Notes under the pieces: generated by a model
What the model was told of the DNA's origin: nothing
Database searches by the model: none
What the model saw: the letters and a program-made list of their open reading frames with translations, nothing else
Assembly (NCBI GenBank): GCA_052327205.1
Contig: CM126202.1
Coordinates: 454,212,001-454,276,000 of the forward strand
Source: Somniosus microcephalus
Taxonomy: Eukaryota
Length of the DNA: 64,000 nt
Reading direction: 5' to 3'
Translations under genes and position numbers: made by a program
Shown: in pieces, positions 5,236 to 41,297 of the stretch
Numbering within the stretch: the stretch's first letter is position 1
Layout: each line of letters begins with the position of its first letter

Positions 5236-5381
5236 GATCATAGAATCATAGAATCGTACAGCACAGAAGGAGGCCATTCGGCCCATCGAGCCTGTGCCGG
5301 CTCTTTCGAAGAGCAATCCGGTTAGTCCCACTCCCCCGCTCTTTCCCCATACCCCTGCAATTTTTTCTCCTTCAAGTATTT
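5236..5381 (-). mobile_element. CR1 3' tail fragment
   Basis: (ATCATAGA)n tail, GAAGGAGGCCATTCGGCCC motif, KKLQGYGERAGEW. Confidence 0.75.
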
Positions 5382-6099
5382 AATAACTGTCACAGTTGAA
5401 GAGCCGCCCAACCAACACACACCATCCCTCTGACCCCTCCCCCGATTAGTGTTGTAATGTGGGGAAATGCAGCAGCCAATTTGCACACAGCAAGGTCCCA
5501 CAAACAGCAATGTGATAATGATCGGATGATGTTGGTTGAGGGATAAATATTGGCCCAGGACACTGGCCCACACACCAATGCTGTCAAGACTCGCACATTA
5601 ATAATGACAAGGAAATGGAAGCCCACGAGAATGTAGCCCAGCCTGTTGTTAGGAGAGAATAGTTTATTTTTTTTTAGACAAAGATTTTTCTTGTAGCACA
5701 TCTTGTTAAGATTTGGCAGTTTACAAGTGAAATTTTCATGCGTTGGATTTCCCAGCTCCTATTCTTATCGTAACTATATACTCAGCCGGTACATTACCTG
5801 CAGTTAAAGATAGTATTAGATTAAAGGAGGAGGCTTATAATGTTGCCAAAAAGAGCAGTAAGCCTAAGAGTTGGGAAGATTTTAGAATTCAGCAAAGGAG
5901 GACCAAGAAATTGTTAAAGAAAGGGAAAATAGAATATGAGAGTAAACTAGCGAGAGACATAAAAACAGATTGTAAAAGCTTCTATAGGTAAGTAAAAAGG
6001 AAAAGGTTAGCGAAAGTAAATGTGGGTCCCTTACAGGCTGAGACAGGAGAAATTATAATGGTGAATCAGGAAATGGCAGTGAAATTAAACAAATACTTT

Positions 6100-7652: not shown

Positions 7653-8214
7653 TTTGTGTCTGTCTTCATGGAAGAAGAGGCAAAAATATTCCCGGAAATA
7701 GTGGAGAATCAAGGGTCCAACGAGAATGAGGAACTGAAAGAAATTAGTATTAGTAAAAAAATAGTACTGGAGAAATTAATGGGACTGAAAGCTGATAAAT
7801 CCCCTGGACCGGATGACCTACATCCTAGGGTTTTGAAAGAGGTGGCTATACAGATAGTGGATGCATTGGTTGTCATCTTCCAAAATTCCATAGATTCTGG
7901 AATGGTTCCTGCAGATTGGAAGGTAGCAAATGTAACCACACTATTTAAGAAAAGAGGGAGAGAGAAAACGGGGAACTACAGACCAGTTAGCTTGACATCA
8001 GTAGTAGGGAAAATGCTGGAATTTATTGTTAAGGACGTGATAACAGGGCACTTAGAAAATAATAATAGGATTGGGCAGAGTCAACACGGATTTATGAAAG
8101 GGAAATCATGTTTGACAAATCTGTTGAGATTTTTGAGGTTGTAACTAGCAGAATAGATAAGGGGGAACCAATGGATGTGGTGTATATGGGTTTTCAGAAG
8201 GCATTCAACAAGGT

Positions 8215-9390
8215 ACATAGACACATAGAAGATAGTAGCAGGAGTAGGCCATTCGGCCCTTCGAGCCTGCTCCGCCATTCAATGAGATCATGGCTGATCA
8301 TCCAAATTCAGTACCCGGTCCCTGCCTTCTCCCCATATCCCTTGATCCCTTTAACCTTAAGAAATATATCCAACTCTTTCTTGAATATACTTAATGAACT
8401 GGCCTCCACCGCCCTCTGTGGCAGAGAATTCCACAGGTTCACCACTCTCTGGGTGAAGAAATTCCTCCTCATTTCAGTCCTAAATGGCTTACCCCTTATC
8501 CTTAGACTATGACCCCTGGTTCTGGACTCCCCGGCCATCAGAAACATCCTTCCTGCATCTAGTCTGTCCAGGCCTGACAGAATTTTATAGGTTTCGATGA
8601 GATCCCCTCTCAATCTTCTAAACTCCAGTGAGTATAAGCCCAATCGACACAATCTCTCCTCATACGTCATCCCTGCCATCCCAGGTATCAGCCTGGTGAA
8701 TCTTCGCTGCACTCCCTCCAGGCAAGAACGTCCTTCCTCAGATAAGGCGACCAAAACTGCACACAATACTCAAGGTGTGGTCTCACCAAGGCCCTGTACA
8801 ACTGTAGCAAGGCATCCTTGTTCCTGTACTCGAACCCTCTTGCTACGAAGGCCAACACACCATTTGCCTTCTTAACCGCCTGCTGCACCTGCATGCTTAC
8901 CTTCAGCGACTGGTGTACAAGAACACCCAGGTCTCTTTGCACTTCCCCTTCTCCCAATCTATTACCATTCAAATAATAATCTGCCTTCCTATTTTTGCCA
9001 CCAAAGTGGATAACCTCACATTTATCCACATTATTGTGCATTTGCCATGTTTCTGCCCAATCACCCAACCTGTCCAAATCGTGCTGGAGTTTCACGACAT
9101 CCTCCTCACAGCATACCCTCCCCCCCAGCTTTGTGTCGTCTGCAAATTTGGAGATATTACATCCAATTCTCTCGTCCAGATCATTAATATATATTGTGAA
9201 CAGCTGGGGTCCTAGGACCGATCCTTGCGGTACCCCACTAGTCACTGCCTGCCACTCGGAAAACGACCCGTTTATTCCAACTCTTTGCTTTCTGTCCGCC
9301 TACCAGTTCTCTATCCAAGTCAATACCTTGCCCCCAATCCCATGTGCCTTAATTTTGCACGATAATCTCTTATGCGGGACCTTATCGAAA
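8215..9390 (-). mobile_element. Young CR1 (HER1-like), 5'-truncated, antisense within the older CR1
   Basis: RT motifs [10 protein letters not shown] and FADDTKL; (TTTCTATG)-type tail; AAGGT duplicated at 8210-8214 and 9394-9398. Confidence 0.92.
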
Positions 9391-9962
9391 GATAAGGTGC
9401 CACACAAGAGAGTATTAAACAAAATTAGGGCTCATGGGATTGGGGGTAATATATTAGCATGGATTGAGGATTGGTTAATGGACAGAAAACAGAGAGTAGG
9501 AATAAGCGGGTCATTTTCGGGTTGCGGGCTGTAACTCGTGGGGTACCGCAAGGATCAGTGCTTGGGCCTCAGCTATTCACAATCTATATCAATGATTTGG
9601 ATGAGGGGACCAAATGTAATATATCCAAGTTTGCTGATGATACAAAGCTGGGTGGGAATGTAAGTTGTGAGGAGGATCCAAAGAGGATTCAAAGGGGATA
9701 TAGACAGGCTATGTGAGTGGGCAAGAACATGGCAAATGGAATATAATGTGGAGACATGTGAAGTTATCCACTTTGGTAGGAAAATTAGAAAAGCAGAGTA
9801 TTTTTTAAATGATGAAAGATTGGGAAATGTTGGTGTTCAGAGGGACCTGGGTGTCCTTGTACACGAATCACTGAAAGTTAACATGCAGGTACAGCAAGCA
9901 ATTAGGAAAGCAAATGGTATGTTGCTCTTTATTAGAAGAGGATTTGAGTATAAGAGTAAAGA

Positions 9963-10116
9963 GAGAATCATAGAAAAACATAGAAAAATAGGAACAGGAG
10001 TAGGCTGTTCAGCCCTTCGAGCCTGCTCCGCCATTCAATATGATCATGGCTGATCCTCTATCTCAATAGCATATTCCTGCTCTCTCACCATACCCCTTGC
10101 TGCAATTTGTATCTAG
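9963..10116 (-). mobile_element. Short CR1 3'-tail insertion in the older CR1
   Basis: CATAGAAA repeats plus GAGCCTGCTCCGCCATTCAAT 3' UTR interrupting the host KSK|DV junction. Confidence 0.75.
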
Positions 10117-10358
10117 ACGTCTCACTGCAATTACATAGGGTCCTGGTGAGACCACACCTGGAGTATTGTGTACAGTTTTGGTCTCCTTACCTAAGGAAGG
10201 ATATACTTGCCATAGAGGGAGTGCAACGAAGGTTCACCAGACTGGTTCCTGAGATGGGGGGATTAACATAGAAACATAGAAGATAGGAGCAGGAGTAGGC
10301 CATTCGGCCCCTCGAGCCTGCTCCGCCATTCGATGAGATCATGGCTGATCATCCAAAC

Positions 10359-13219
10359 TCAGTACCCTGTACCTGCCTTCTCCCCATATCCCTTGATACC
10401 TTTAGCTCTAAGAAATATATCTAACTCCTTCTTGAATATATTTAAAGACTTGGCCTCAACCGCCTTCTGTGGTAGAGAATTCCAGAGGTTCACCACTCTC
10501 TGGGTGAAGAAATTCTTCCTCATCTCTGTCCTAAATGTCTTACCCCTTATCCTTAGACTATGACCCCTGGCTCTGGACACACCGACCATCGGGAACATTC
10601 TACCTGCATCTAGTTTGTCCAGACCTGTCAGAATTTTATAAGTTTCGATGAGATCCCCTCTCATTCTTCTAAACTCCAGCGAGTATAAGCCCAATCGACC
10701 CAATCTCTCCTCATACGTCATTCCTGCCATCCCAGGGATCAGCCTTGTGAACCTTCGCTGAACTCCTTCCATGGCAAGAACATTCTTCCTCAGATAAGGT
10801 GCCCAAAACTGCACACAGTACTCAAGGTGTGGTCTCACCAAGGCCCTGTACAACTGCAACAGGACATCCTTGCTCCTGTACTTAAACCCTTTTGCTATGA
10901 AGGCCAACATACCATTTGCCTTCTTCACCGCCTGCTGCACCTGCATGCTTACCTTCAGTGACTGGTGCACAAGGACACCCAGGTCTCGTTGCACTTCCCC
11001 TTCTCCCAATCTATTGCCATTCAGATAATAGTCTGCCTTTCTGTTTTTGACACCAAAGTGGATAACCTCGCATTTATCCACGTTATATTGCATCTGCCAC
11101 GCTTCTGCCCAATCACCCAAACTGTCCAAATCATCCTGGAGTTTCTCGGTATCCTCCTCGCAGCACACACGCCCACCCAGCTTTGTGTCGTCTGCAAACT
11201 TGGAGATATTACATCTAGTTCCCTTATCTAGATCATTAATGTATATTGTGAATAGCTGGGGTCCAAGGACCGATCCCTGCGGTACCCCACTAGTCACTGC
11301 CTGCCACTTGGAAAGAGACCCGTTAATTCCTACTCTCTGCTTTCTGTCCGCCAACCAGTTCTCTATCCAAGTCAATACCTTGCCCCCAATCCCATGTGCC
11401 TTAACTTTACACGCTAATCTCTTATGCGGGACCTTATCGAAAGCCTTTTGAAAGTCCAAATACACCACATCTACTGGTTCTCCCTTATCTATTTTCCCAG
11501 TTACATCCTCAAAAAATTCCAGTAGATTAGTCAAGCACGATTTACCTTTTGTAAATCCATGTTGACTTTGTCCGATCCTGTCACTGTTTTCCAAGTGCTC
11601 AGCTATTACATTCTTTATAATGGACTCTAGCATTTTCCCCACTACCGATGTCAGGCTTACCGGTCTGTAATTCCCCGCTTTCTCTCTACCACCCTTTTTG
11701 AATCGTGGGGTAACATTAGCTACCCTCCAATCCATGGGTACAGTTCCAGATTCCAGCGAATTTTGGAAGATGATCAGCAATGCATCTACTATTTCTAGGG
11801 CCACTTCCTTAAGTACCCTAGGATGTAGATTATCAGGCCCTGGGGATTTATCGGCCTTCAATCCCATCAATTTCCCTAACACCATTTCCCTACAAATACT
11901 GATTTCTTTCAGTTCCTCCCTCTCATCAGACCCTATGCTCTCCAACATCTCTGGGAGGTTATTTGTGTCCTCCTTTGTGAAGACAGAACCAAAATATGCA
12001 TTTAATTGGTCTGCCATTTCTTTGTTCCCCATTATAACATCCCCTGCTTCTGACTGCAAGGGACCTACACTTGATTTCACTAATCTTTTTCTCTTCACAT
12101 ATCTATAAAAGCTCTTACAGTCAGTTTTTATGTTCCCTGCAAGCTTACTTTCATATTCTATTTTCCCCTTCTTAATTAATCCCTTTGTCCTCCTTTGTTG
12201 AATCCTAAACTGCTCCCAATCCTCAGGGTTACTGCTTTTTCTGGCCAATTTATATGCCCTCTTCTTGGATCTTATGCTATCCCTAATTTCCCTTGTTAGC
12301 CATGGTTGAGTCACCCTTTTTGTTTTATTCTTATCCCAAACTGGGATTAACAACTTCTGTAGTTCATCCATGCAGTCTTTGAATGTTTGCCATTGCCTAT
12401 CCACCGTCAACCCTTTGAGTGACATTCCCCAATCAATCCAACCAATTCGCGCCTCATACCATCGTTGTTTCCTTTATTTAATTTCAGGAACCTAGTCTCT
12501 GAGTCAACTATTTCATTCTCCATCCTAATGAAGAATTCTATCATATTATGATCGCTCTGACCCAAGGGGCCTCGTACAACAGGATTGCTAATTAATCCTC
12601 TCTCATTACATAATACCCAGTCTAAGATGGCCTGATCTCTGGTTGGTTCCTCGACATATTGTTCCAGAAAACCATCCCGTAAACATTCTAGGAATTCCTC
12701 CTCCACAGTATTTTTACTAATTTGGTTAGCCCAATCTATATGTAAATTAAAGTCACCCATGATGACTCCTGTGCCCTTATTGCACGCATCTCTAATTTCC
12801 CGTTTAATGCCATCCCCAACCTCCGTATTACTGTTTGGAGGTCTATATACCACTCCCACTAACGTTTTCTGCCCCTTGATATTTCTCAGTTCTACCCATA
12901 CAGATTCCGCATCATCAGAGTTAATATCCTTCCTTTCCATTGTGTTAATCCCCTCTTTAACCGGCAATGCTACCCCACCTCCCTTTCTTTTTTGCCTATC
13001 CTTCCTAAATATTGAATACCCCTGGATGTTGAGTTCCCAGCCTTGGCCATCCTGGAGCCATGTTTCTGTAATCCCAATCAAATCATATTCGTTTACCTCT
13101 ATTTGCGCAGCTAATTCAGCCACCTTGTTCCGAATGCTCCTTGCATTAAGACACAAAGCCTTCAGGCTTGTTTTTTTAACGCTCTCAGACCTACATGAAT
13201 TATTATTTACTGTGACCAT
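10359..13219 (-). pseudogene. CR1 ORF2, APE endonuclease + reverse transcriptase, one frameshift near 12440
   Basis: EN motifs LNARSI, ITETWL, GVVYRPP, MGDFN, SDHN (13219-12407). RT motifs [36 protein letters not shown] (12425-10359). The frame is open upstream to 13351. Confidence 0.93.
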
Positions 13220-13341
13220 GTTTGATTTAAACCGTTGAGTTCTTTGCCTTCTAATTTTGTTTTTCTCCTTCCTTTCTTTTGCTTTTTTCCTTGTTTCCCT
13301 TTCCTCTGTCTCCCTACTCAGGTTCCCAACCTCCTGCCACT

Positions 13342-14292
13342 TTAGTTTAAACCCTCCCCAACAGCACTAGCAAACACTCCCCCTAGGACATCGGTCCCGG
13401 CCCTGCCCAGGTGCAAACCTTCCTGTTTGTACTGGTCCCACCTCTCCCAGAACCGGTTCCAATGTCCAAGGAATTTGAATCCCTCCCCCTTGCACCATTT
13501 CTCTAGCCACGTATTCATTTGAAATATCCTCCTATTTCTACTCTGACTAGCACGTGACACTGGTAGCAATCCTGAGATTACTACCTTTGAGGTCCTATTT
13601 TTTAATTTACCTCCTAACTCCCTATATTCTGCTTTTAGGACCTCATCCCGTTTTGTACCTATATCGTTGGTGCCTATGTGCACCACGACAACTGGCTGTT
13701 CGCCCTCCCCCTCCAAAATGTTCTGCAGCCGCTCTGAGACATCCTTGACCCTTGCACCAGGGAGGCAACACACCATCCTGGAGTCTCGATTGCGGCCGCA
13801 AAAACGCCTATCTATTCCCCTTACAATTGAGTCCCCTATCACTAGAGCTTTCCCACTCTTTTTCCTCCCAGCCTGTGCAGCAGAGCCACCCATGGTGCCA
13901 GGAAGTTGGCTGCTGCTGCCTTCCCCTGATGAGTCATCCCCCCCAACAGTATTTAAAGTGGTATATCTGTTGGAGAGGGGGATGGCCGCAGGGGATTCCT
14001 GCACTACCTGCCTGCACCTCTTACTCTGCCTGCTGGTCACCCATTCCCTTCCTGCCTGTACACACTTTACCTGCGGTGTGACCAACTCACTATATGTGAT
14101 ATTCACGACGTCCTCAGCATCGCGAATGCTCCAAAATGAATCCATCCGCAGCTCCAGTGCCGCAATGCGGTCTGTCAGTAGCTGCAGCTGGACACACTTC
14201 CCGCACACATGGTCGTCAGGGATGCAGGAAGCGTCCCTGATTTCCCACATAGAGCAGGAGGAGCACACTACGGGGCTGGGCTGTCCTGCCAT
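13342..14292 (-). CDS. CR1 ORF1p: N-terminal Cys zinc-finger/coiled coil plus SGNH/GDSL esterase domain (316 aa)
   Basis: CSSC..CGKC followed by a heptad segment; GDSIVR (block I), PGA, HIGTND (block III), GLHL (block V). Known architecture of esterase-type CR1 ORF1. Confidence 0.9.
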   Translation of the reverse strand: MAGQPSPVVCSSCSMWEIRDASCIPDDHVCGKCVQLQLLTDRIAALELRMDSFWSIRDAEDVVNITYSELVTPQVKCVQAGREWVTSRQSKRCRQVVQESPAAIPLSNRYTTLNTVGGDDSSGEGSSSQLPGTMGGSAAQAGRKKSGKALVIGDSIVRGIDRRFCGRNRDSRMVCCLPGARVKDVSERLQNILEGEGEQPVVVVHIGTNDIGTKRDEVLKAEYRELGGKLKNRTSKVVISGLLPVSRASQSRNRRIFQMNTWLEKWCKGEGFKFLGHWNRFWERWDQYKQEGLHLGRAGTDVLGGVFASAVGEGLN

Positions 14293-15304
14293 GACTTACC
14301 CTTTAACTAATTAATTAAAATTAAATGAATCCCACCAATTTCTCTGCAGTTAAATTATATATTTAAGGGCCCTGGTTTACAAACTGTCCCCGCTACACCA
14401 CAGAGACTTTAAAAGCTATAAACCACAGACTTAAAGTTTTAAAACGAGAGAAATACTCCAATCAATCACCTACCTGTTTTGTGGTGACGTCACACCTCGA
14501 ATACTTTTTACCTCCCTCCTTCCCTGAGATTGGAGATTGGTGAGGCCCACCTGAGCCTCTGGGGCCTTTTGTAGTCGCTCTGCCGCTCCGAGATTCCTCC
14601 CACCGCTGCCGATTGTCCTATGAGGAGAGATTGAGTAGACTAGGCTTATATTCTCTCGAGTTTAAAAGAATGAGAGGTGATCTCATTGAAACATACAAAA
14701 TTCTTACAGGGCTTGACAGGGTAAATGCAGGGAGGATGTTTCCCTGGTTGGGGAGTCTAGAACCAGGGGTCACTGTCTCAGAATAAGGGGTCGGCCATTT
14801 AGGACTGAGATGAGGAGGAATTTCTTCACTCAGAGGGTGGTGAATCTTTGGAATTCTCTACCCCAGAGGGCTGTGGAGGCTCAGTCATTGAGTATATTCA
14901 AGACAGAGATCGATAGATTTTTGAATATTAAGGGAATCAAGGGATATGGGGATAGTGCAGGAAAGTGGAGATGAGGTAGAAGATCAGCCATAATCCTATT
15001 CAATGGCGGAGCAGGCTCGAGGGGCCGAATGGCCTACTCCTGCTCCTATTTCATATGTTCTTATGTTCTTATGTACACCCCCGTGTTGAACAAAGAGCCC
15101 CTTTTATCAGCTTCTGCATTTAATCCGTATTCCAGGAGCCCAAGGTCAGTGAACCAACTCCTGCTCTTTATCCTGCAGAGTCCAGTTTCCTTCGACCAAA
15201 AGCAGAGAACTGGATCTCCAAGTACAGCTGAGTCCAGAGCAATTGAATTCAACCGTACCGACACCAGGGAGGGGGGTCACAGACACAGGGAGGGGGTCAC
15301 AGAA

Positions 15305-16268
15305 ATGGACGAGGGAATTGGATGTAATATCTCCAAATTTGCAGATGACACAAAGCTGGGTGGGAGGTTATGCTGTGAGGAGGATGTCGTGAAACTCCAG
15401 TATGATTTGGATAGGTTGGGTGATTGGGCAGAAACATGGCAAATGCACTATAATGTGGATAAATGTGAGGTTATCCACTTTGGTGGCAAAACAGGAAGGC
15501 AGATTATTATTTGAATGGCAATAGATTGGGAGAAGGGGAAGTGCAAAGAGACCTGGGTGTTCTTGTGCACCAGTCGCTGAAGGTAAGCATGCAGGTGCAG
15601 CAGGCGGTTAAGAAGGCAAATGGTATGTTGGCCTTCGTAGCAAGAGGGTTCGAGTACAAGAACAAGGATGTCTTGCTGCAGTTGTACAGGGCCTTGGTGA
15701 GACCACACCTTGAGTATTGTGTGCAGTTTTGGTCACCTTACCTGAGGAAGGATGTTCTTGCCATGGAAGGAGTGCAGCGAAGATTCACCAGGCTGATACT
15801 TGGGATGGCAGGAATGACGTACGAGGAGAGATTCTGTCGATTGGGCTTATACTCACTGGAGTTTAGAAGATTGAGAGGGGATCTCATCGAAACCTATAAA
15901 ATTCTGTCAGGCCTGGACAGACTAGATGCAGGAAGGATGTTTCTGATGGCCGGGGAGTGCAGAACCAGGGGTCATAGTCTAAGGATAAGGGGTAAGCCAT
16001 TTAGGACTGAAATGAGGAGGAATTTCTTCACCCAGAGAGTGGTGAACCTGTGGAATTCTCTGCCACAGAGGGCGGTGGAGGCCAGTTCATTAAATATATT
16101 CAAGAAAGAGTTGGATATATTTCTTAAGGCTAAAGGGATCAAGGGATATGGGGAGAAGGCAGGGACAGGGTACTGAATTTGGATGATCAGCCATGATCTC
16201 ATCGAATGGTGGAGCAGGCTCGAGGGGCCGAATGGCCTACTCCTGCTCCTATCTTCTATGTTTCTATG
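15305..16268 (+). mobile_element. Young CR1 3' fragment inserted in the minisatellite
   Basis: [17 protein letters not shown] ... GIKGYGEKAGTGY, tail TCTTCTATGTTTCTATGT; minisatellite units on both sides. Confidence 0.92.
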
Positions 16269-18279
16269 TGAGGGGGGGTCACAGACATGGGGAGGGGGTC
16301 ACAGACATGGGGAGGAGGGTCACAGACATGGGGATGAGGGTCACAGACACGGGGAGGAGGGTCACAGACTCAGGGAGGGGGGTCACAGACACGGGGAGGG
16401 GGTCACAGACACGGGGAGGGGTCACAGACACGGGGAGGGGGTCACAGACACGGGGAGGGGTCACAGACACAGGGGGGTCACAGACACGGGGAGGGGGTCA
16501 CTGACACGGGGAGGGGGGGTCACAGACACGGGGAGGGGTCACAGACACGGGGAGGGGGTCACAGACACAGGGAGGGGGTCACAGACACGGGGAGGGGTCA
16601 CAGACACGGGGAGGGGGTCACAGACACGGGGAGGGGTCACAGACACAGGGAGGGGGTCACAGACACGGGGAGGAGGTCACAGACAGGGGGAGGGGGGTCA
16701 CAGACACGGGGCGGGGGGTCACAGACACGGCGAGGGGTCACAGACATGGGGAGGGCGGTCACAGACAGGGGGAGGGCGGTCACAGACACGGGGAGGAGGT
16801 CACAGACATGGGGAGGGGGCTCACAGACACGGGGAGGAGGTCACAGACAGGGGGAGGGCGGTCACAGACACGGGGAGGAGGTCACAGACAGGGGGAGGGC
16901 GGTCACAGACACGGGGACGGCGGTCACAGACACGGGAAGGAGGTCACAGACAGGGGGAGGGCGGTCTCAGCCAAGGAAGGGGGGTCACAGACACAGGGAG
17001 GGGTCACAGACACGGGGAGGGGTCACAGACAGGGGGAGGGCGGTCACAGACACGGGGAGGAGGTCACAGACAGGGGGAGGGCGGTCACAGACACGGGGAG
17101 GAGGTCACAGACAGGGGGAGGGCGGTCACAGACACAGGGAGGGCGGTCACAGACACGGGGAGGGGTCACAGACACGGGGAGGGGTCACAGACAGGGGGAG
17201 GGCGGTCACAGACACGGGGATGGCAGTCACAGACAGGGGGAGGGCGGTCACAGACACGGGGAGGAGGTCACAGACAGGGGGAGGGGGGTCACAGACAGGG
17301 GGAGGGGGGTCACAGACACGGGGAGGGGGGTCACAGACATGGGGAGGAGGTCACAGACAGGGGGAGGGCGGTCACAGACACGGGGAGGGCGGTCACAAAC
17401 ACGGGGAGGAGGTCACAGACACGGGGAGGGGGGTCACAGACACGGGGAGGGCTCACAGACACGGGGAGGGGGGTCACAGACACGGGGAGGGGGGTCACAG
17501 ACACGGGGAGGGCGGTCACAGACACGGGGAGGAGGTCACAGACACGGGGAGGGTGGTCACAGACACGGGGAGGGGTCACAGACACGGGGAGGGGGGTCAC
17601 AGACACGGGGAGGAGGTCACAGACACGGGGAGGGCGGTCACAGACACGGGGAGGGGTCACAGACACGGGGAGGGCGGTCACAGACACGGGGAGGAGGTCA
17701 TAGGCACGGGGAGGGCGGTCACAGATACGGGGAGGGGTCACAGACACGGAGAGGGTGGTCACAGACACGGGGAGGGGGTCACAGACACGGGGAGGGGAGT
17801 CACAGACAGGGGGAGGGCGGTCACAGACACGGGGAGGGGGTCACAGACATGGGGAGGGGGATCACAGGCACGGGAAGGAGAGTCACAGACAGGGGGAGGG
17901 CGGTCACAGACACGGGGAGGAGGTCACAGACACGGGGAGGGCGGTCACAGACACGGGGAGGAGGTCACAGACACGGGGAGGATGGTCACAGACACGGGGA
18001 GGAGGTCACAGACACGGGGAGGAGGTCACAGACAGGGGGAGGAGGTCACAGACAGGGGGAGGGCGGTCACAGACACGGGGAGGAGGTCACAGACACGGGG
18101 AGGGCGGCCACAGACACGGGGAGGAGGTCTCAGACACGGGGAGGGGGTCACAGACACAGGGAGGGGGATCACAGACACGGGAGGAGGGTCACAGACACGG
18201 GGAGGGGGGTCACAGACACAGGGAGGGGGGTCACAGACATGGGAAGGGGGGTCACACTCAGGGGGTGGAGGTCACAGAC

Positions 18280-19065
18280 AAGAATACCCTCAGTCAACTA
18301 GTCCTGGGACTCAGTGAAGTAACTACTAACAATACTAACAATAACCAGCCCCAGGACAGTGACAGGGGTAACACAAAGAATTCGACCCAACACAATCGTC
18401 GCTAAGCAAAAGGAAAAATATCTGACATATTGGGCAGAAACAACAAAAACCCAAAGCAAACTCAATTGCTACTTGGCCCTAAACAGACAATACAACATAG
18501 CTGATTACCTGACCATGGTAAAGGATAACAAACTGAGAAGAACCTTGACAAGGTACAGACTTAGCGAACATAGCCTAGCGATCGAAAAAGGCAGACACAG
18601 GCAGACCAGGCTGCCAAGAGAGGACAGGATATGCTCTCACTGCAGTCAGGGAGTGGTGGAGACAGAGATGCACTTCCTCACAGCTTGTGGAAAATATCAG
18701 GGCATCAGGGAGAATTTCTACCAAAAATTCTCACAAATATGCCCTGATTTCAGAAATCTGAATGACAACCAAAAACTCCCATTCCTACTGGGAGAGGAGA
18801 GAAGCTGTATAACACTGGCGGCACACTATGTTACAGCTTGCCATGAACAGAGGGACAACCAGTAAACTAAGAAAAGAATATATATAAACAATGCGAATGT
18901 ATATTTATACACTCAGGGATATACCTGTTTATACACTGTATGAATAGAACTGCGTTTATGTGCTAAACCATAAATGTATTTTGATGCTTTGGCAACATAA
19001 GATGTAACTTATCATGCCAATAAAGCGATTTGAATTGTGAATTGTGAATTGTGAATTGTGAATTG
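18280..19065 (+). mobile_element. Non-LTR retrotransposon 3' fragment, RTEX-like, with (GAATTGT)n tail
   Basis: ORF end with RLSEHSLAIEKGRH and CCHC knuckle CSHC-x8-H-x4-C, then AATAAA and a tandem tail. Clade assigned from memory of fish RTE-X elements. Confidence 0.7.
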
Positions 19066-19904: not shown

Positions 19905-22900
19905 GCACCAACCCCAACCCCCACCCAACCTCCCTCACTCCCAAGCCCCAACATCCCCAATCACCCCCATCCCCCCACACTCCCCAACCCCCCACCCACC
20001 AACCCCCACACTCCCCATCTCCCCCACACTCCCCAATCCCCCATCTCCCCCACACTCCCCAATCCCCCCATCTCCCCCACACTCCTCAATCCCCCCATCT
20101 CCCCCATACTCCCCAATCCCCCCATCTCCCCCACACTCCCCAATCCCCCCAAACCCCACACTCCCCAACCCCCCACCCACCAACCCCCACACTCCCCAAT
20201 CCCCCCATCTCCCCCACACTCCCCAATCCCCCCAAACCCCACACTCCCCAACCCCCCACCCACCAACTCCCACATTCCCCATCTCCCCATCCCCCCACAC
20301 TCCCCAATCCCTTACCCCGAACCCCCACACTCCCCAATCCCCCCATCTCCCCAATCACCCCCATCCCCCCACACTCCCCAACCCCCCACCCACCAACCCC
20401 CACACTCCCCCACACTCCCCAATCCCCCATCTCCCCCACACTCCCCAATCCCCCCATGTCCCCCACACTCCCCAATCCCCCCATCTCCCCCACACTCCCC
20501 AATCCCCCCATCTCCCCACACTCCCCAATCCCCCCATCTCCCCGACACTCCCCAATCCCCCCATCTCCCCCACACTCCCCAATCCCCCCATCTCCCCCAC
20601 ACTCCCCAATCCCCCCATCTCCCCCACACTCCCCAATCCCCCCATCTCCCCACACTCCCCAATCCCCCCATCTCCCCCACACTCCCCAATCCCCCCATCT
20701 CCCCCACACTCCCCAATCCCCCCATCTCCCCCACACTCCCCAATCCCCCACCCCCAACCCCCACACTCCCCAACCCCCCACCCACCAACCCCCACACTCC
20801 CCAATCCCCCATCTCCCCCACACTCCCCAATACCCCCATCTCCCCCACACTCCCCATTCCCCCCATCTCCCCCACACTCCCCAATCCCCCCATCTCCCCC
20901 ACACTCCCCAATCCCCCCATCTCCCCCACACTCCCCAATCCCCCCATCTCCCCCACACTCCCCAATCCCCCACCCCCAACCCCCACACTCCCCAATCCCC
21001 CCATCTCCCCCACACTCCCCAATCCCCCCATCTCCCCCACACTCCCCAATCCCACCATCTCCCCCACACTCCCCAATCCCCCATCTCCCCCACACTCCCC
21101 AATCCCCCACAAACCCCACACTCCCCAACCCCCCACCCACCAACCCCCACACTCCCCAACCCTCCACCCACCAACCCCCACACTCCCCAATCCCCCATCT
21201 CCCCCACACTCCCCAACCCCCCATCTCCTCCACACTCCCCATCCCCCCATCTCCCCCACACACCCCATCCCCACATCTCCCCCACACTCCCAAATCCCCC
21301 CATCTCCCTCACACTGCCCATCCCCCTATCTCCCCCACATACCCCATCCCACCATCTCCCCCACACTCCCCAATCCCCCATCCCCACACACTCCACACAG
21401 TCCCCAATCCCCCCATCCCACCACACTCCCCAAACCCCCACCCCCCAACACCCACACTCTCCCATCTCCCCGATCTCCCCCACACTCCCCAATCCCCCCA
21501 TCCTCCCCCAGCTCCCCAACACCCCCCATCTCCCCCACACTCCCCAATGCCCCCATCCCCCCAAACTCCCCAATCCCCCACACTCCCTAATCCCCCCATC
21601 ACCCCCACACTCCCTAATCCCCCATCACCCCCACACTCCCCAATCCCCCATCCACCCCACACTCCCCAATCCCCCCATCCACCCCACACTCCCAATCCCC
21701 CCATCTCCCCCAAATTCCCCAATCCCCCCATCTCCCCCACACTCCCCAATCCCCCATCTCCCCCACACTCCCCAATCCCCCCATCTCCCCCACACTCCCC
21801 AATCCCCCCATCTCCCCACACACCCCAATCCCCCATCTCCCCCACACTCCCCAATCCCCCCATCTACCCCACACTCCCCAATCCCCCCATTCCCCCACAC
21901 TCCCCAATCCCCCATCTCCCCCACACTCCCCAATCCCCCCATCTCCCCCACACTCCCCAATCCCCCCATCTCCCCCACACTCCCCAATCCCCCCATCTCC
22001 CCCACACTGCCCAATCCCCCATCTCCCCCACACTCACCAATCCCCCCATCTCCCCCACACTCCCTAATCCACCCATCTCCCCCACACTCCCCAATCCCCA
22101 CAACTTCCCCACACTCCCCAATCCCCCCATCTCCCCCACACTCCCCAATCCCCCCATCTCCCCCACACTCCCCAATCCCCCCAACCCCCAAACCCCACAC
22201 TCCCCAACCCCCCACCCACCAACACCCACACACCCCAACCCCCCACCCACCAACCCCCACACTCCCTATCCCCCATCTCGCCCACACTCCCCATCCCACC
22301 ATCTCCCCCACACTCCCCAATCCCCCCATCTCCCCCACACTTACCATCCCCCCATCTTCCCCACACTCCCCATCCTCCCATCTCCCCCACACTCCCCAAT
22401 CCCCCATCTACCCCACACTCCCCATCCCCCCCATCTCCCCCACACTCCCCAATCCCCCCAATCCCCCCCACACTCCCCAATCCGACCCATCCCACCCACA
22501 CTCCCCAATCCCCCCATCCCCGCACCCCCATCTCCCCGCAACACTCCCCAATCCCCCCCATCCCCCCCACACTCCCCAATCCCCACACCCCCCCACACTC
22601 CCCAATCCCCCATCCCCCCCCCACACTCCCCAATCCCCCCACCCCCCCCACACTCCCCAATCCCCCCATCTCCCCCACAATCCCCCCCACCCCCCCCACA
22701 CTCACCAATCCCCACATCTCCCCCACACTCCCCAATCCCCCCATCTCCCCCACACTCCCCAATCCCCCCATCCCCCCCCAGACTCCCCCCAATCCTCCCA
22801 TCCCCCCCACACTCCCCAATCCCCCCGTCCCCCCCAGGCTCCCCAATCCCCCCATCCCCCCCCACACTCCACCCCAATCCCCCCCATCCCCCCCAGACTC

Positions 22901-25900
22901 CCCAATCCCCCCATCTCCCCCACACTCCCCAATCTCCCATCCCCCCACATTCCCCAATCTCCCCATCCCCCCACACTCCCCAATTGCCCCACCCCCCCCA
23001 CACTCCCCAATCCCCCCACCCCCCCACATGCCCCAATCCCCCCCATCCACCCCACACTGCCCAATCCCCCCATCTCCCCCCCACAATCCCCAATCCCCCC
23101 CATCTCCCCCCAAACTCCCTAATCCCCCCACCTCCCCCACAGTCCCCATCTCCCCACCCCCCACACTCCCCAATCCCCCCATCTGCCCCACACACCCCAA
23201 TCCCCCCATCTCCCCCACACTCACCAATCCCCCCATCTCCCCCACACTCCCCAATACCCCCATCACCCCCACACTCCCCAATCTCCCCATCTCCCCCACA
23301 CCCCCACCCCCCAACCCCCCATCTCCCCCACACTCCCCAATCCCCCCCATTCCCCCACCACACTCCCCAATCCCCCATCTCCCCCACACTCCCCAATCCC
23401 CCCATCCCCCCCACACTCCCCAATCCCCCAAACCCCACACACCCCAAACCCCCACCCACCACCCCCACACTCCCCAACCCCCCACCCAACAACCCCCACA
23501 CTCCCCCAACCCCCAAACCACCCTATCCCCCATCACCCCCACACTCCCCATCCCACCATCTCCCCCACACTCCCCAATCCCCCCATCTCCCCCCACACTT
23601 ACCATCCCCCCCATCTTCCCCACACTCCCCATCCTCCCATCTCCCCCACACTCCCCAATCCCCCATCTCCCCCACACTCCCCATCCCCCCATCTCCCCCA
23701 CACTCCCCAATCCCCCCCCACACTCCCCAATCCGACCCATCCCACCCACACTCTCCAATCCCCCCCATCCCCCCAATCCCCCCACCCCCCCACACTCCCC
23801 AATCCCCCCACCCCCCCACACTCCCCAATCCCCCACCCCCATCCCTCCCCACCACACTCCCCAATCCCCCATCCCCCCACACTCCCCAATCCCCCATCCC
23901 CCCACACTCCCCAATCCTCCATCTCCCCCACACTCCCCAATCCCCAATCCCCCATCTCCCCCTACACTCCCCAATCCTCCATCTCCCCCACACTCCCCAA
24001 TCCCCAATCCCCCATCTCCCCTACACCCCCCAATCACCCACACCCAACCCCCACACTCCCCAATCCCCCCATCCCCCCACACTCCCCAATCCCCCCATCC
24101 CCCCACACTCTCCAATCCCCCCATCCCCTCACACTCCCCAATCTCCCCCACACTGCCCAAACCCCCACACTCCCCAATCACCCCACACTCTCCAATCCCC
24201 CCCACACTCCCCAATCTCCCCCACACTCCCCAATCCCCCACCCCAACCCCCAGATGCCCCAATCCCCCCATCTCCCCCACACTCCCCAATCCCCCCATCT
24301 CCCCCACACTCCCCAATCCCCCCATCTCCCCCACACTCCCCAATCCCCCCATCCCCCCACACTCCCCAATCCCCCCATACCCACACTCCCTAATCCCCCC
24401 ATCTCCCCATCTCCCCCACACTCCCCAATCCCTGCATCCCCCCCACACTCCCCAATCCCCCCATCCCCCCCCACACTCCCCAATCCCCCCATCCCCCCCC
24501 CACACTCCCCAATCCCCCCATCCCCCCCACACTCCCCAATCCCCCCATACCCCCAGACTCCCCAATCCCCCCATACCCCCAGACTCCCCAATCCCCCCAT
24601 ACCCCCAGACTCCCCAATCCCCCCATCACCCCCACACTCCCCAATCCCCCCATCACCCCCACACTCCCCAATCCCCCCATCCCCCAACACTCCCCCACAC
24701 TCCCCAATCCCCCCATCCCCCCACACTCCCCAATCCCCCCATCTCCCCCACACTCCCCCATCCCCCCCACACTCCCCCATCTCCCCCATCACTCCCACAC
24801 TCCCCAATCCCCCCATCCTCCCCCAGACTCCCCAATCCCCACATCTCCCCCACACTCCCCAATCCCCCCATACCCACACTCCCTAATCCCCCCATCTCCC
24901 CCACACTCCCCAATCCCCCCATACTCCCCAATCCCCCCATCCCCCCAGGCTCCCCAATCCCCCCATACTCCCCAATCCCCCCATCCCCCCCAGGCTCCCC
25001 AATCCCCCCCATACCCCCCCAGACTCCCCAATCCCCCCATCACCCCCACACTCCCCAATCCCCCCATCTCCCCCACACTCCCCAATCCCCCCAATCCCCC
25101 CCACACTCCCCAATCCCCCCCATTCCCCCCCACACTCCCCAATCCCCCCACCCCCCCACACTCCCCAATCCCCCCCCATCCCCCCCCCACACTCCCCAAT
25201 CCCCCCCATCCCCCCCCACACTCCCCAATTCCTGGACTAGGGACAGGGTCACTGGCAAGGCTTGGAAGCAAAGCAGAGCCAGGCCTGGTTAGTACCTGAA
25301 CGGGTGACCATCAGGGAAGACCAGGTGCAGAAGGTCACAGAAGGAGCCCCGAGGAGGGGCGGTTGGTGAGAAGGTCACGGAAGGAGGAGCGGCTGGTGAG
25401 CAGGCCCGGGCGTTGGGCTGAAGATTGTCGGACAGGAGGAATGGTGGAAATGGAATGGCGGCGCGCACCGACGCAGCGGCTTTGCTTCTCCCAGTCATGG
25501 AAGCTTGCAAGATCATATTTCGTTGTTCATGTACTTGTGCAATGACAATAAAGTTGAATTATTATTAATTATTATCCCCCCCCCACACTCCCCAATGCCC
25601 CCATCTCCCCCACACTCCCCAATCTCCCCATCTCCCCCACACTCCCCAATCCCCCCATCTCCCCCACACTCCCCAATCCCCCCATCTCCCCCACACTCCC
25701 TCCATCTCCCCCACACTCCCCAATCTCCCATCTCCCCCACACCCCCAATCTCCCCATCTCCCCCACACTCCCCAATCTCCCCATCTCCCCAATCTCCCCA
25801 TCTCCCCCACACTCCCCAATCTCCCCCACACTCCCCAATCTCCCCATCTCCCCCACACTCCCCAATCTCCCCATCTCCCCCACACTCCCCAATCCCCCCA

Positions 25901-27180
25901 CACTCCCCAATCCCCCCACACTCCCCAATCCCCCTATCTCCTCCACACTCCCCAATCCCCCCATCTCCCCCACACTCCCCAATCACCATCTCCCCCACAC
26001 TCCCCAATCCCCACACTCCCTCATCCCCCCACTCCCATCTCCCCCCCACACTCCCCAATCCCCCCATCCCCCCCCACACTCCCCAATCCCCCCATCCCCC
26101 CACACACTCCCCAATCCCCCATCTCCCCCACACTCCCCAATCCCCCCATCTCCCCCACACTCCCCAATCCCCCCATCTCCCCCACACTCCTCAATCTCCC
26201 CATCCCCCCACACTCCCCAATCCCCCCATCTCCCCCACACTCCCCAATCCCCCCATCTCCCCCACACTCCCCAATCCCCCCATCTCCCCCACACTCCCCA
26301 ATCCCCCCATCTCCCCCACACTCCCCAATCCCCCATCTCCCCCACACTCCCCAATCCCCCCACACTCCCCAATCCCCCCATCTCCCCCACACTCCCCAAT
26401 CCCCCATCTCCCCCACACTCCCCAATCCCCCCACACTCCCCAATCCCCCCATCTCCCCCACACTCCCCAATCCCCCCATCCCCCCACACTCCCCAATCCC
26501 CCCATCTCCCCCACACTCCCCAATCCCCCCATCTCCCCCACACTCCCCAATCCCCCCATCTCCCCCACACTCCCCAATCCCCCCATCTCCCCCACACTCC
26601 CCAATCCCCCCATCTCCCCCACACTCCCCAATCCCCCCATCTCCCCCACACTCCCCAATCCCCCCATCTCCCCCACACTCCCCAATCACCATCTCCCCCA
26701 CACTCCCCAATCCCCACACTCCCTCATCCCCCCACTCCCATCTCCCCCCCACACTCCCCAATCCCCCCATCCCCCCCCACACTCCCCAATCCCCCCCATC
26801 CCCCCCCACACTCCCCAATCCCCCCCATCCCCCCCACACTCCCCAATCCCCCCATCCCCCCACACACTCCCCAATCCCCCATCTCCCCCACACTCCCCAA
26901 TCCCCCATCTCCCCCACACTCCCCAATCCCCCCATCTCCCCCACACTCCCCAATCCCCCATCTCCCCCACACTCCCCAATCCCCCCATCCCCCCACACTC
27001 CCCAATCCCCCCATCTCCCCCACACTCCCCAATCCCCCCATCTCCCCCACACTCCCCAATCCCCCCATCTCCCCCACACTCCCCAATCCCCCCATCTCCC
27101 CCACACTCCCCAATCCCCCCATCTCCCCCACACTCCCCCAATCTCCCCCACACTCCCCAATCACCCCAGCTCCCCCCCAC
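19905..27180. repeat. ~7-kb C-rich satellite, ~26-27-bp unit CCCCAATCCCCCCATCTCCCCCACACT, interrupted at 25230-25575
   Basis: Directly visible; the + strand is almost G-free; internal block duplications. Confidence 0.97.
25230..25575 (+). mobile_element. Short retroposon: 5S rRNA-derived head, GC-rich body, Rex1/Babar-type 3' tail (SINE3-like)
   Basis: 25261-25334 aligns without gaps to vertebrate 5S rRNA nt 44-117 (58/74 by hand count). Tail ..GTACTTGTGCAATGACAATAAAGTTGA(ATT)n resembles the LINE tail at 35418-35500. Confidence 0.8.
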
Positions 27181-35417: not shown

Positions 35418-36169
35418 ATAATAATAATAACCATAATCAACTTTATTGTCATTGTTAGTGCACAAGTGCAGTACAATGAAATGTAGGCTTGCGGCTCCCG
35501 AGAGTGTACATTTAGATTAAGACATTTAAACATTCAACATACATTTGGCTTGTAATACATTAACATAAACATAATAAAGTGCATTGGCAGATGTGCAGGC
35601 TTTAGAGTTTATTTGTGGAGTTCAGTAGGATGACAGCCCTGGGGAAGAAGTTGTTCCTAAATCTGGTCGTTCGGATGCGAATGCATCTGTAGCGTCTCCC
35701 AGATGGCAGGGGGGCGAACAAACTGTGGCTGGGGTGGGTAGGGTCTTTGATGATGGTCAGTGACCTCTGTAAACAGCGTTTCTGGTATATGTGCTCTATG
35801 GTCGGTAGCTGGGTACCGGTAATGCGTTGGGCAGTTTTGACTACCCGCTGCAGGGCTTTCCGGTCATAGGAGCTACAGCTGCCATACCATACTGTGATAC
35901 AGTTCGTCAGGATGCTCTCTATTGTGCAGCGGTAAAAGTTAGAGAGGATCAGGGGTGACAGGTTACATCCCTTCAGCCTCCTTAGGAAATATAGGCGCTG
36001 CTGGGCCTTCTTCACCAAAGAGGAGGTATTGAGGGACCAGGAGAGGTCTTCCGTGATGTGGACTCTGAGGAACTTAAAGCTGTCCACCCTTTCCACCACA
36101 GCCCCATGGATGTGGATAGGGGTGTGACTTCCGCCTTTAGACTTCCTGAAGTCCACAATGATTTCCTTG
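35418..36169 (-). mobile_element. Rex1/Babar-type LINE 3' fragment
   Basis: ORF 35602-36156 with KKAQQRLYFLRRL, ESILTNCITVWYG, LPSGRRYR (DUF1891-type C-terminus); AATAAAG..(TTA)n tail; possible CTGTC TSD at 35413-35417 and 36170-36174. Confidence 0.88.
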
Positions 36170-36214
36170 CTGTCTTGCTAAGAGGCATTATTAAAGCTGT
36201 ACCATAAACATATG

Positions 36215-40386: not shown

Positions 40387-41297
40387 TCAGTGGTAGCACT
40401 CTTGACTCTGAGTCAGAGGTTGTGGGTTGAAGTCCCACTCCAGAGACTTAAACAAATAATCTAGGTTGACATTTCTGTTCAGTACTGAGGGAGTGCTGCA
40501 TTGTCGGAGGGGCAGTACTGAGGGAGCGCTACACTGTCGGAGGGGCAGTACTGAGGGAGTGCTACACTGTCGGAGGGGCAGTACTGAGGGAGTGCTGCAC
40601 TGTCGGAGGGGCAGTGCTGAGGGAGTGCTGCACTGTCGGAGGGGCAGTACTGAGGGAGTGCTGCACTGTCGGAGGGGCAATACTGAGGGAATGCTGCACT
40701 GTCGGAGGGGCAGTACTGAGGGAGTGCTGCACTGTCAGAGGGACAGTAATGAGGGAGTGCTGCACTGTCGGAGGTGCAGTAATGAGGGAGTGCTGCACTG
40801 TCGGAGGTGCAGTACTGAGGGAGCGCCGCACTGTCAGAGGGGCAGTACTGAGGGAGCACCGCACTGTCGGAGGGGCAATACTGAGGGAGTGCTGCACTGT
40901 CGGAGGGGCAGTACTGAGGGAGTGCTGCACTGTTGGAGGGACAGTGCTGAGGGAGTGCTGCACTGTTGGATGTGCCGTCTTTTGGATGAGATGTTAAACT
41001 GAGGCCCCGTCTGCTCTCTCAGGTGGAGTAAAGGATCCCACGGCCACTATTTCGAAGATGAGCAGGGGAATTCTCCCTGGTGTCCCGGCCAATATTTATC
41101 CCTCAATCAACATCACTAAGAAACAGATTATCTGGTCATTATCACATTGTTGTTTGTGGGAGCTTGCTGTGCACAAATTGGCTGCTACATTTCCTACATT
41201 ACAACAGTGACTACACTTCAAAAGTACTTCATTGGCTGTAAAGCGCTTTGGAACATCCTGAGGTCGTGAAAGGCGCTATAGAAATGCAAATCTCTCT
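40384..41297 (+). mobile_element. Full DeuSINE with an internal tandem expansion
   Basis: Head GCTCAGTGGTAGCACTC..GGGTTGAAGTCCC; core resumes at ~40972; tail AAAGGCGCTATAGAAATGCAA. Confidence 0.88.
40480..40975. repeat. 15 copies of a 33-bp unit CAGTACTGAGGGAGTGCTGCACTGTCGGAGGGG
   Basis: Counted from the 11-aa periodicity STEGVLHCRRG in ORF 40466-41002. Confidence 0.93.

Follow-up and report, generated by a model that had tools for sequence, protein, structure and literature searches.

A 5S-headed SINE family carrying 5' and 3' pieces of a Rex1-type LINE in Somniosus microcephalus

The element and its family

The stretch analysed here (the window) comprises 64,000 nucleotides of Somniosus microcephalus contig CM126202.1. 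At 25230-25575 it holds a composite element lying within a C-rich satellite array and, on the other strand, a fragment of a Rex1-clade LINE (Table 1). The element is bounded by a candidate target-site duplication, which is weak because the flank is itself a tandem repeat; a run of at least 8 C before the core is found in only 12 of 180 satellite units, three of them at the insertion site.

Table 1. Positions of the element's modules, its insertion site and the LINE fragment in the window.
Feature	Position	Strand	Evidence
C-rich ~27-bp satellite array, insertion target of the window copy	19946..27150	.	TRF period 27, ~270 copies
Candidate 20-bp target-site duplication, left copy, inside the satellite	25210..25229	+	exact 20-mer at both sites
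Non-5S leader; window copy lacks approximately the first 7-8 nt of the family 5' end	25230..25260	+	7/31 to 5S
5S rRNA nt 44-117; T-run terminator of 5S absent	25261..25334	+	58/74 ungapped; RF00001 E 1.6e-4; run of 4 T absent from element
Pol III type-1 internal control region: box A 25267-25281, IE 25284-25289, box C 25297-25314	25267..25314	+	11/15, 6/6, 12/18 to 5S
Purine-rich spacer with internal duplications, length variable between copies and organisms	25337..25453	+	internal repeats; read joints
5' part of Rex1 LINE: start codon at 25455 and first 12-13 codons	25454..25492	+	MAARTDAAA match, PSSM
Rex1-type 3' UTR tail, predicted stem-loop ~25520-25545	25495..25557	+	52/72 to window LINE tail
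(ATT)n terminal microsatellite, common family 3' end	25558..25575	+	diverging loose ends
Candidate 20-bp target-site duplication, right copy	25577..25596	+	exact 20-mer at both sites
5'-truncated Rex1-clade LINE fragment: C-terminal ~200 codons, stop 35604-35602, 3' UTR, microsatellite	35421..36213	-	PF09004 E 1.5e-16

Evidence for the family comes from public reads and contigs of four runs out of 22, namely X2 (organism B), X8 (organism C), X11 (organism D) and the RNA run X20, which yielded 1896, 177 and 3214 matching contigs and 516 matching reads, respectively. In X2 and X8 the depth spans all 29 bins of the element, and 1354 of the 1896 X2 contigs are at least 95% like it. Common 5' and 3' ends recur across the three organisms. 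Among the matches listed, 29 contigs of X2 and 155 of X11 run into unrelated flanks beyond the common 5' boundary, and the loose ends of 26 X20 reads and 15 X2 contigs diverge behind 25567. Summed depth, which is no true copy number, gives a rough bracket of 500-15,500 copies in X2.

SINEBase defines a SINE as an interspersed element of less than 1 kb with at least 60% identity to tRNA, 5S or 7SL RNA over at least 60 nt (PMC3531059). The element is ~350 nt long with unrelated flanks past its common ends, matches 5S at 58 of 74 positions, and has a body and a LINE tail that set it apart from an RNA pseudogene. That it is multi-copy follows indirectly, from the distinct 5' flanks of the 155 listed contigs of organism D and from the depth bracket of organism B, that is, from reads and not from the host assembly. 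Patterns for the tail, head and Rex1 start gave no match in viral, metagenome and prokaryote collections, and the fold of the whole element is unremarkable (z -1.16).

The 5S-derived head and the 5' leader

The first-pass annotation had aligned 25261-25334 with 5S rRNA nt 44-117, ungapped and with 16 mismatches in 74, and had noted that the 5' ~30 nt do not resemble 5S; both observations hold. As 5S reference we used a full-length vertebrate-type 5S gene on a metagenome contig (L043:86-204, 115 bits), for which the head is the sole blastn match in the window (E 8e-13). The local alignment scores 92.5, against a maximum of 42.5 among 1000 shuffles. The covariance-model check proposed at that stage also picks out the head: Rfam RF00001 gives 25.6 bits (E 0.54) on the whole window and 30.6 bits (E 1.6e-4) on 25200-25600, both under the gathering score of 38.

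This segment covers the type-1 internal control region, whose box limits follow what we take to be the Xenopus numbering. SINE3 heads are described as 5S rRNA-derived with boxes A, IE and C, all of which are found here (11/15, 6/6 and 12/18), and replacement of 5S nt 1-43 is not named as disqualifying (Kojima 2018, PMC5786205; Kojima 2020, PMC7245038). At 25270 and 25299 the window copy departs from 5S, and nearly all family reads, in all runs, have the 5S letter. These two belong to 14 head variants among the matches listed. Five go toward the 5S letter, namely 25270 and 25299 throughout and, in organism D, 25296, 25311 and 25319; a sixth, 25301T, does so in part of organism D, three go away from it and five match 5S neither way. 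With two private changes, one each in boxes A and C, the window copy is probably a weakened passenger.

Upstream of the head, the family extends past the window copy: among the matches listed, loose ends before 25234 have 12-13 nt in common and then diverge (32 reads of X20, 29 contigs of X2, 155 contigs of X11). The family's first 12 nt are predicted to pair with 25238-25249 in a 12-bp hairpin, a duplex of -19.7 kcal/mol for which the element offers no better site. The family thus begins with ~40 nt that form a family-specific hairpin in place of 5S nt 1-43 at near-equal spacing, with the family start at 25221-25222 lying 3-4 nt downstream of the expected 5S +1 at 25218. A rearranged 5S origin of the leader was rejected, as 25230-25260 agrees with 5S nt 13-43 at only 7 of 31 positions and scores under the shuffle median; an Rfam search gave no support for a tRNA or other Rfam origin.

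The Rex1-derived pieces and the LINE in the window

Between head and tail the first-pass annotation saw a ~160-bp GC-rich body. Its spacer at 25337-25453 is unassigned, but its last ~40 nt (25454-25492) turn out to be the start of a Rex1 ORF. The spacer contains an 18-nt repeat at 40-nt spacing and a 30-nt tandem repeat; joints in the reads skip 31 nt or repeat 40 nt, and in organism D the depth is zero at 25374-25397. The translation of 25455-25481, MAARTDAAA, forms residues 1-9, the N-terminus, of 5 of 120 full-length Rex1-type proteins and agrees at 7 or more of 9 residues with 36 of them, compared with none of 120 CR1 controls above 5/9. With a Rex1 N-terminal PSSM, 25454-25492 ranks first of 127,918 13-mers of the window (26.6 vs 13.6 bits). 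The five exact matches are from teleost or unnamed sources, and the motif is absent from three shark-named Rex1 proteins (P0320, P0340, P0343). In organism D the depth of this piece equals that of the tail (~850,000), whereas the spacer before it drops to 0-5,300. Reads and contigs departing at 25492 stay in frame, a 30-nt loose end among the matches listed encoding RLSVFTLLL, hydrophobic as in Rex1 N-termini.

Blastn of the tail against the window returns a single non-self match under E 0.01, 35506-35421 on the minus strand (73% over 90 columns, E 6e-8). The alignment with a Rex1-type LINE that had been noted at first pass is thus borne out, with its coordinates corrected from 35418-35500 to 35421-35506. 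Without the microsatellite, the tail has 52 identities in 72 columns (~72%) with a 6-nt indel, a score reached by none of 2000 shuffles; it scores 66.5 with the window LINE and 18.5-30 with the 3' ends of eight further LINE-like ORFs there. The tail hairpins of SINE and LINE, equal in position, do not exceed shuffled sequences in stability (z 1.14 and 0.38, respectively).

A LINE 5' part in the body of a SINE is what marks bipartite-LINE SINEs (Kojima 2018). Here that part is represented by the Rex1 N-terminal 9-mer, and the tail stems from the 3' end of the same LINE clade. Judged from its sequence, the element joins a 5S promoter head to a bipartite (5' plus 3') Rex1.

The homologs of the LINE at 35421-36213 are fish proteins with RT and PF09004, at no more than 74-75% identity. 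Its ORF resembles named Rex1 elements, agreeing with Repbase-named Xenopus REX1-9 at 40 of 65 aa (aligned by hand), and its assignment to the Rex1/Babar clade is by this similarity and not by an RT tree. In tblastn, a full Rex1 ORF matches there with residues 662-863 only, so that the RT core is absent from the fragment. The Rex1 primer RTX1-F1 encodes FSSAFNT, which occurs in 53 of 120 homologs, with a variant in 27 and no match in 40; the CR1 ORF of the window has FQKAFDK. That CR1 ORF matches Chiloscyllium and Hypanus proteins at 76%, 76% and 71%, versus 32-53% for bird and turtle proteins.

The first-pass annotation proposed this LINE as partner of the SINE. A reading with the same architecture, in which the LINE family represented at 35421-36213 is the mobiliser, appears unlikely to us. 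It would account for the tail matching nowhere else in the window, for the equal hairpin position and for the family letters at 25501 and 25516, which shift toward, and equal, those of the window LINE. However, for copies that are mostly more than 95% alike, a partner agreeing at 52/72 with a 6-nt indel is rather distant, the fragment has no RT core, and in 32 X20 reads among the matches listed the tail is common from 25495 on with different sequence upstream, which suggests a closer Rex1 donor or a longer subfamily. Since the LINE is 5'-truncated without RT core, its tail agrees at 52/72 and the reads point to a closer Rex1 family, it is probably a sister family of the partner rather than the mobiliser. 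A 13-mer from reads departing at 25494 matches its 3' UTR at 35557-35569 (0.02 expected). We infer the autonomous Rex1 partner from loose-end consensus strings and from linkage by equal counts in 2 X8 contigs; Rex1 proteins have no loci in the viral, metagenome, prokaryote or plasmid collections.

Proposed mechanism and relation to known SINEs

We consider it likely that the window copy, slightly shortened at its 5' end, belongs to a young SINE family of high copy number, in which a 5' hairpin, a 5S promoter half and a spacer of variable length precede ~40 nt from the start of a Rex1 LINE, followed by a Rex1-type 3' tail. The family is likely transcribed by Pol III and likely mobilised by a Rex1 protein that recognises the common tail. 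Of this explanation, the modules, the common ends, insertion at many independent sites and the derivation of both LINE pieces from Rex1 are observed. TFIIIA and TFIIIC on boxes A, IE and C would place the transcription start at the 5' end of the family, ~45 nt before box A. Pol III, meeting neither the 5S terminator nor an internal T4, would read through the tail into the flank, and an autonomous Rex1 ORF protein would prime reverse transcription at the (ATT)n end. The autonomous Rex1 family would have its own 5' end, without a 5S head. The SINE likely arose when an internally deleted (bipartite) Rex1 acquired the 5S-derived head via a template switch, a route proposed for RTE and Vingi by Kojima 2018 (PMC5786205).

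It is improbable, in our view, that an autonomous Rex1 LINE is itself 5S-headed, with hairpin, 5S segment and spacer as its original 5' UTR, and that the SINE is this LINE minus its middle. The start codon does follow directly after the spacer. Against this, contigs with LINE-type variants appear aligned over 25454-25492 only, among the matches listed: the variants 25469, 25485 and 25486 (2.9% of X2 depth) have equal depth of 102.8 in 2 contigs of X8, with end distances that confine the match to this interval. These X8 contigs have dissimilar sequence before 25454 (agreement 0.65), and in X2 an aligned end is never more than 16 letters away from the 25469 variant. Moreover, Pol III is terminated by T-runs, which makes a multi-kb Pol III transcript unlikely.

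We give as little credence to a bipartite Rex1 derivative driven by Pol II or by read-through, with the 5S segment as cargo rather than a working promoter. A free Pol III transcript was not seen in X20, where reads lie on both strands within longer transcripts, 32 of them among the matches listed continuing into upstream flanks, and where read starts pile up at 25242 and 25284, away from the family 5' end. The signal of X20 is read-through on both strands. Boxes A and C are only 73% and 67% like 5S, and a Pol II initiator may lie in the Rex1 5' piece. Against the cargo reading stand a fixed family 5' end ~230 nt upstream of the Rex1 piece and 45-46 nt before box A, which is type-1 promoter spacing, the intact IE (6/6), a family nearer to 5S than the window copy, and the missing T4 run. 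Pol III transcription of the family from the 5S promoter is likely on the evidence of its sequence. Finally, a single-copy chimera of a 5S pseudogene fragment beside a LINE tail, which the first-pass annotation had named as its own refutation, can practically be dismissed: although blastn finds no second copy in the 64-kb window, thousands of contigs across the whole length of the element, with common ends, exist in three organisms.

The advance is the discovery of a transposable-element family, with no new mechanism. More tentatively, it may be the first SINE on a bipartite Rex1, the third LINE clade after RTE and Vingi; its Rex1 5' piece may be kept because Rex1 transposition depends on it as a nucleotide signal in cis, and its head may be a natural transplant of a promoter, with only the 5S internal control region retained and the upstream transcribed part swapped for a hairpin at equal spacing. 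Kojima 2018 (PMC5786205) is the single source for the novelty of a bipartite Rex1: LINE 5' parts in SINE middles are given there only for RTE and Vingi, Rex is never mentioned, and only four clades form bipartite non-autonomous LINEs, for an unknown reason, perhaps sampling bias. The Rex1 case is a direct test of this clade limit and supports a general route from internally deleted LINE to SINE. As the 40-nt Rex1 piece is kept between organisms while the adjoining spacer changes, it is a candidate cis-element of a little-studied LINE clade; the cis-signal reading, if true, would also explain the near-invariant MAARxDAAA start of Rex1 proteins across fishes.

In the literature covered, a young, abundant 5S-headed family would be the first for cartilaginous fishes, of use in repeat annotation and as insertion markers. 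In a literature search, neither a 5S-headed shark or ray SINE nor a pair explicitly called 5S/Rex1 came up, and the SINE table of PMC10946416 has no 5S-headed family for cartilaginous fishes. The chondrichthyan SINEs HE1, SacSINE1 and CmiSINEs, likely from the same host group, are all tRNA-headed with CR1/L2 tails, unlike the 5S/Rex1 element. SINE2-5_NV of Nematostella, with Rex1-24_NV, likewise carries a Rex1 tail but has a tRNA head, and no bipartite structure is reported for it in the passages covered.

The DeuSINEs, among them SINE3-1, AmnSINE1, OS-SINE1 and SacSINE1, have a Deu domain of ~330 bp in vertebrates. The absence of a Deu core noted at first pass is supported by length, since the 117 nt left unassigned, internally duplicated and partly missing in organism D, offer no space for it. 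Zebrafish SINE3-1 and AmnSINE1 have the same 5S type-1 promoter boxes in the head, but a Deu core and CR1-4_DR-type tails where the shark element has a Rex1 tail; vertebrate SINE3 families are mobilised by the CR1 clade (Kojima 2020, PMC7245038). OS-SINE1 of salmonids joins a 5S head, a Deu domain and an RSg-1 tail (PMC3747384; PMC3272025). It shares with our family the 5S head, a fish host and a LINE tail not named CR1/L2, but differs in host lineage and in the Rex1 5' piece of the shark element. RSg-1 is presumably Rex1-like; if it is Rex1-clade, the 5S/Rex1 pairing itself may not be new and OS-SINE1 may pre-empt it. Of the possibly undescribed 5S-SINE/Rex1 pair suggested at first pass, what stands is a SINE family of many copies in which a 5S type-1 segment is joined to a Rex1-type tail, but "undescribed" is unsupported given OS-SINE1 (5S, Deu and RSg-1).

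The nearest relatives in design are Ped-1, CoeSINE5, SINE-1_Pmo and HaSE3, 5S-headed SINEs on bipartite RTE LINEs (Kojima 2018, PMC5786205). Like these, the shark element has a 5S head followed by 5' and 3' parts of one LINE, and for both a template switch onto a LINE with an internal deletion is the proposed origin. It has the same working design and yet stands outside the described families, as its donor is of Rex1 type, not RTE or Vingi; its LINE 5' piece is coding (start codon plus 12 codons) and not UTR, and a hairpin takes the place of 5S nt 1-43.

Copies, ends and 5S-derived head of the family

The element at 25230-25575 is a copy of a real SINE3-type family on Rex1, with a replaced 5' leader. 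Four of 22 candidate public sequencing runs supplied the family counts: 1896 contigs in X2 and 516 RNA reads in X20 (both organism B), 177 contigs in X8 (organism C) and 3214 contigs in X11 (organism D). Depth was obtained over 29/29 element bins in X2 and X8 and 27/29 in X11; none of the contigs listed covers the entire element. Upstream of 25234, loose ends have 12-13 letters in common and then diverge (32 reads in X20, 29 contigs in X2, 155 in X11), and those downstream of 25567 diverge once (ATT)n has been passed. Shared boundaries followed by divergence show that both ends of the family are fixed and that its copies sit at many different sites, in agreement with the first-pass annotation, which had taken the element for a SINE. 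The window copy lacks approximately 7-8 nt of the family 5' end and probably one more base near 25233. At least 95% identity in 1354 of the 1896 X2 contigs indicates a young family. Dividing summed depth by single-locus-like depth brackets the copies at approximately 500-15,500, which is not a true copy number. The window copy lies in a C-rich satellite, and a 20-bp direct repeat on both sides of it, with a long C-run present in 12 of 180 satellite units, has modest support as a candidate TSD.

With the Rfam 5S model, the whole window gave a weak match to the element head (E 0.54), and 25200-25600 a clear one (E 1.6e-4), yet its 30.6 bits did not reach the cut-off of 38. A pattern scan of metagenome contigs for the IE motif provided 120 loci as potential 5S references; 20 were put through Rfam and 9 accepted as 5S. 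L043, a vertebrate-type gene of full length, served as the main reference, and L062 and L020 were used for checking. The gapless match of 25261-25334 to 5S nt 44-117 claimed in the first-pass annotation proved accurate, with 58/74 positions identical to L043 (54/74 and 56/74 for L062 and L020), as did its view that the 5' leader is unlike 5S (7/31 identical upstream of 25261). Nearly all run sequences examined carry the 5S letter at 25270 and 25299, where the window copy does not, and organism D is nearer to 5S at three further head positions; the 14 head variants listed comprise 6 toward the 5S letter, 3 away from it and 5 neither.

The 5' end of the family projects to 25221-25222, and a colinear 5S +1 would be at 25218. 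Its first 12 nt are fully complementary to 25238-25249 (-19.7 kcal/mol, the best site within the element). The 5S terminator is missing and a T4 run is absent throughout. Type-1 promoters fix the start approximately 50 nt upstream of box A, irrespective of the sequence there; with this rule, the head spacing, the boxes and the lack of T4 make an anatomy compatible with transcription by Pol III. The X20 RNA reads come from both strands, extend into flanks and show no pile-up at the family 5' end.

Rex1-derived parts of body and tail

The body behind the 5S match, described by the first-pass annotation as GC-rich, contains a Rex1 5' piece at 25454-25492 that had been overlooked: 25455-25481 translates to MAARTDAAA, the Rex1 N-terminus. 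In 120 Rex1-type proteins collected with the N-terminal third of P0045, a Rex1-type protein chosen as query for its similar start, 5 have this exact start and 36 match at least 7/9 residues, nearly all at the ORF start; no CR1 control protein (0/120) exceeds 5/9. A PSSM from 93 N-termini, selected by methionine position and independent of the window sequence, places 25455 at rank 1 of 127,918 window 13-mers (26.6 vs 13.6 bits). The motif is absent from the three shark-named Rex1 proteins found.

Variants at 25469, 25485 and 25486 have identical depth and contig counts in X8, and end distances limit the match to 25454-25492. A loose end downstream of 25492 continues in frame as RLSVFTLLL, resembling the hydrophobic stretch that Rex1 proteins carry directly behind this motif (58% hydrophobic, 31 proteins). 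We read these variants, linked by counts and not by haplotypes, as an autonomous Rex1 partner without the 5S head. LINE-type variants make up approximately 3% of X2 depth; in organism D, the Rex1 piece equals the tail in depth and spacer depth is near zero. In X20, the LINE-type variant at 25485 accounts for 18% of RNA reads vs 3% of DNA depth, an excess in one run which hints that autonomous Rex1 is transcribed, with reads that could stem from host flanks. Gene models extending upstream of the Rex1 start have Lys before Met in 9/13 cases, and the organism D SINE has AAG before ATG (window 25452-25465); this context resembles a YY1-type initiator motif, from which Pol II might transcribe Rex1 as from an internal promoter.

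The tail alignment to the window's Rex1-type LINE, 35506-35421 (-), likewise held (E 6e-8 within the window). Minus the microsatellite, 52/72 columns are identical, a score reached by 0/2000 shuffles; the 3' ends of 8 other LINE-like frames stay below half of it. A tail hairpin lies at the equivalent location in SINE and LINE, with stability no better than shuffles. Homologs of the LINE protein are fish RT proteins (at most 75% identity); FSSAFNT, the peptide of Rex1 primer RTX1-F1, or a close variant occurs in 80 of the best 120. Its first 65 residues have 40 matches, counted by hand, to the Repbase-named Xenopus REX1-9 (supplement of PMC4635592).

The first-pass annotation had proposed this LINE as the element's partner. 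The related Rex1-type tail stands, but the fragment has no RT core, so this copy is unable to mobilise anything, and a tail identity of approximately 72% is low for the mobilising partner of a young family. Among the X20 RNA reads, 32 match the tail from 25495 onward but differ in sequence upstream, and 38 diverge at 25494 into sequence with a 13-mer matching the window LINE 3' UTR at 35557-35569 (0.02 expected); such departures imply that closer donors or longer-tailed subfamilies exist.

The modules run in the order hairpin, 5S nt 44-117, spacer, Rex1 5' piece, Rex1 3' UTR and (ATT)n, with common ends at multiple loci. We consider it probable that one explanation covers this architecture: Pol III would transcribe the element from the 5S boxes, a Rex1 protein would recognise its tail, and target-primed reverse transcription would insert new copies, the family having arisen when a template switch joined a 5S-derived head to a bipartite Rex1.

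Other features of the window and the metagenome loci

Features of the window; limits of box A, IE and box C follow Xenopus numbering
Feature	Position	Strand	Remarks
Box A	25267-25281	+	11/15 to 5S
IE	25284-25289	+	6/6 to 5S
Box C	25297-25314	+	12/18 to 5S
Rex1-type LINE fragment	35421-36213	-	C-terminal ~200 residues, PF09004
CR1-type LINE, near full-length	10359-14295	-	
CR1 ORF1-like frame	13342-14295	-	
CR1 endonuclease frame	12407-13366	-	
CR1 RT frame	10359-12473	-	
C-rich satellite hosting element	19946-27150		period 27
G/C-skewed minisatellite/satellite arrays, three long	16177-18317, 19946-27150, 40460-41018		produce long spurious open frames
Open frame, 427 aa, DDE_Tnp_4 (Harbinger-type nuclease)	45497-46780	-	
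Acidic low-complexity ORF	43952-44848	+	adjoins DDE_Tnp_4 frame

Against Chiloscyllium and Hypanus proteins the CR1 ORF reaches 71-76% identity, compared with 32-53% for those of birds and turtles, which makes a shark or ray the likely host; about ten more 3' fragments of this family, about 90-97% alike, lie in the window. The Rex1-type protein (35605-36177, -) is up to 74-75% identical to teleost elements, equalling the best shark/ray matches of the window CR1; horizontal transfer may account for this, or else strong constraint on the protein. The DDE_Tnp_4 frame and adjacent acidic ORF are possibly a Harbinger transposon.

Most of the 120 IE-motif loci (e.g., L024, L030, L037, L072, L108) are not 5S genes: a tRNA-like 5' part is followed by the 5S promoter's 3' half and then by a common body. 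They are apparently composite tRNA/5S SINE heads, from host DNA in animal-associated metagenomes, and a separate instance in which the 5' part of a 5S control region has been swapped. L009, L022, L049, L054 and related loci (JAAUYM01 contigs) have full-length 5S-like heads (Rfam 61-82 bits) and common downstream sequence where the terminator is expected; they are probably another SINE3-like family.

Comparison with known SINEs

RSg-1, the tail of OS-SINE1, is presumably Rex1-like. Ohshima 2013 (PMC3747384) describes OS-SINE1 as 5S, Deu and RSg-1 tail, and a Nematostella tRNA SINE with a Rex1 tail; Kojima 2020 (PMC7245038) attributes vertebrate SINE3 to CR1-clade LINEs. In the available portions of the survey of SINEs containing 5' and 3' parts of one LINE (Kojima 2018, PMC5786205), LINE 5' parts within SINE bodies come only from RTE and Vingi, bipartite non-autonomous LINEs only from RTE, Ingi, Vingi and R2, and Rex is not mentioned. 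The comparison also drew on PMC5499810, PMC3531059, PMC10946416, PMC5753468, PMC4824008, PMC6274825, PMC2746220, PMC3272025 and PMC5381603. Our literature searches, which were not aimed at bipartite Rex1 and had the SINEBase family table and the Repbase and Dfam libraries outside their scope, returned no such family. The 5S-headed bipartite-RTE SINEs have the same way of working, and the element differs from them by its Rex1 basis and its replaced 5' leader.
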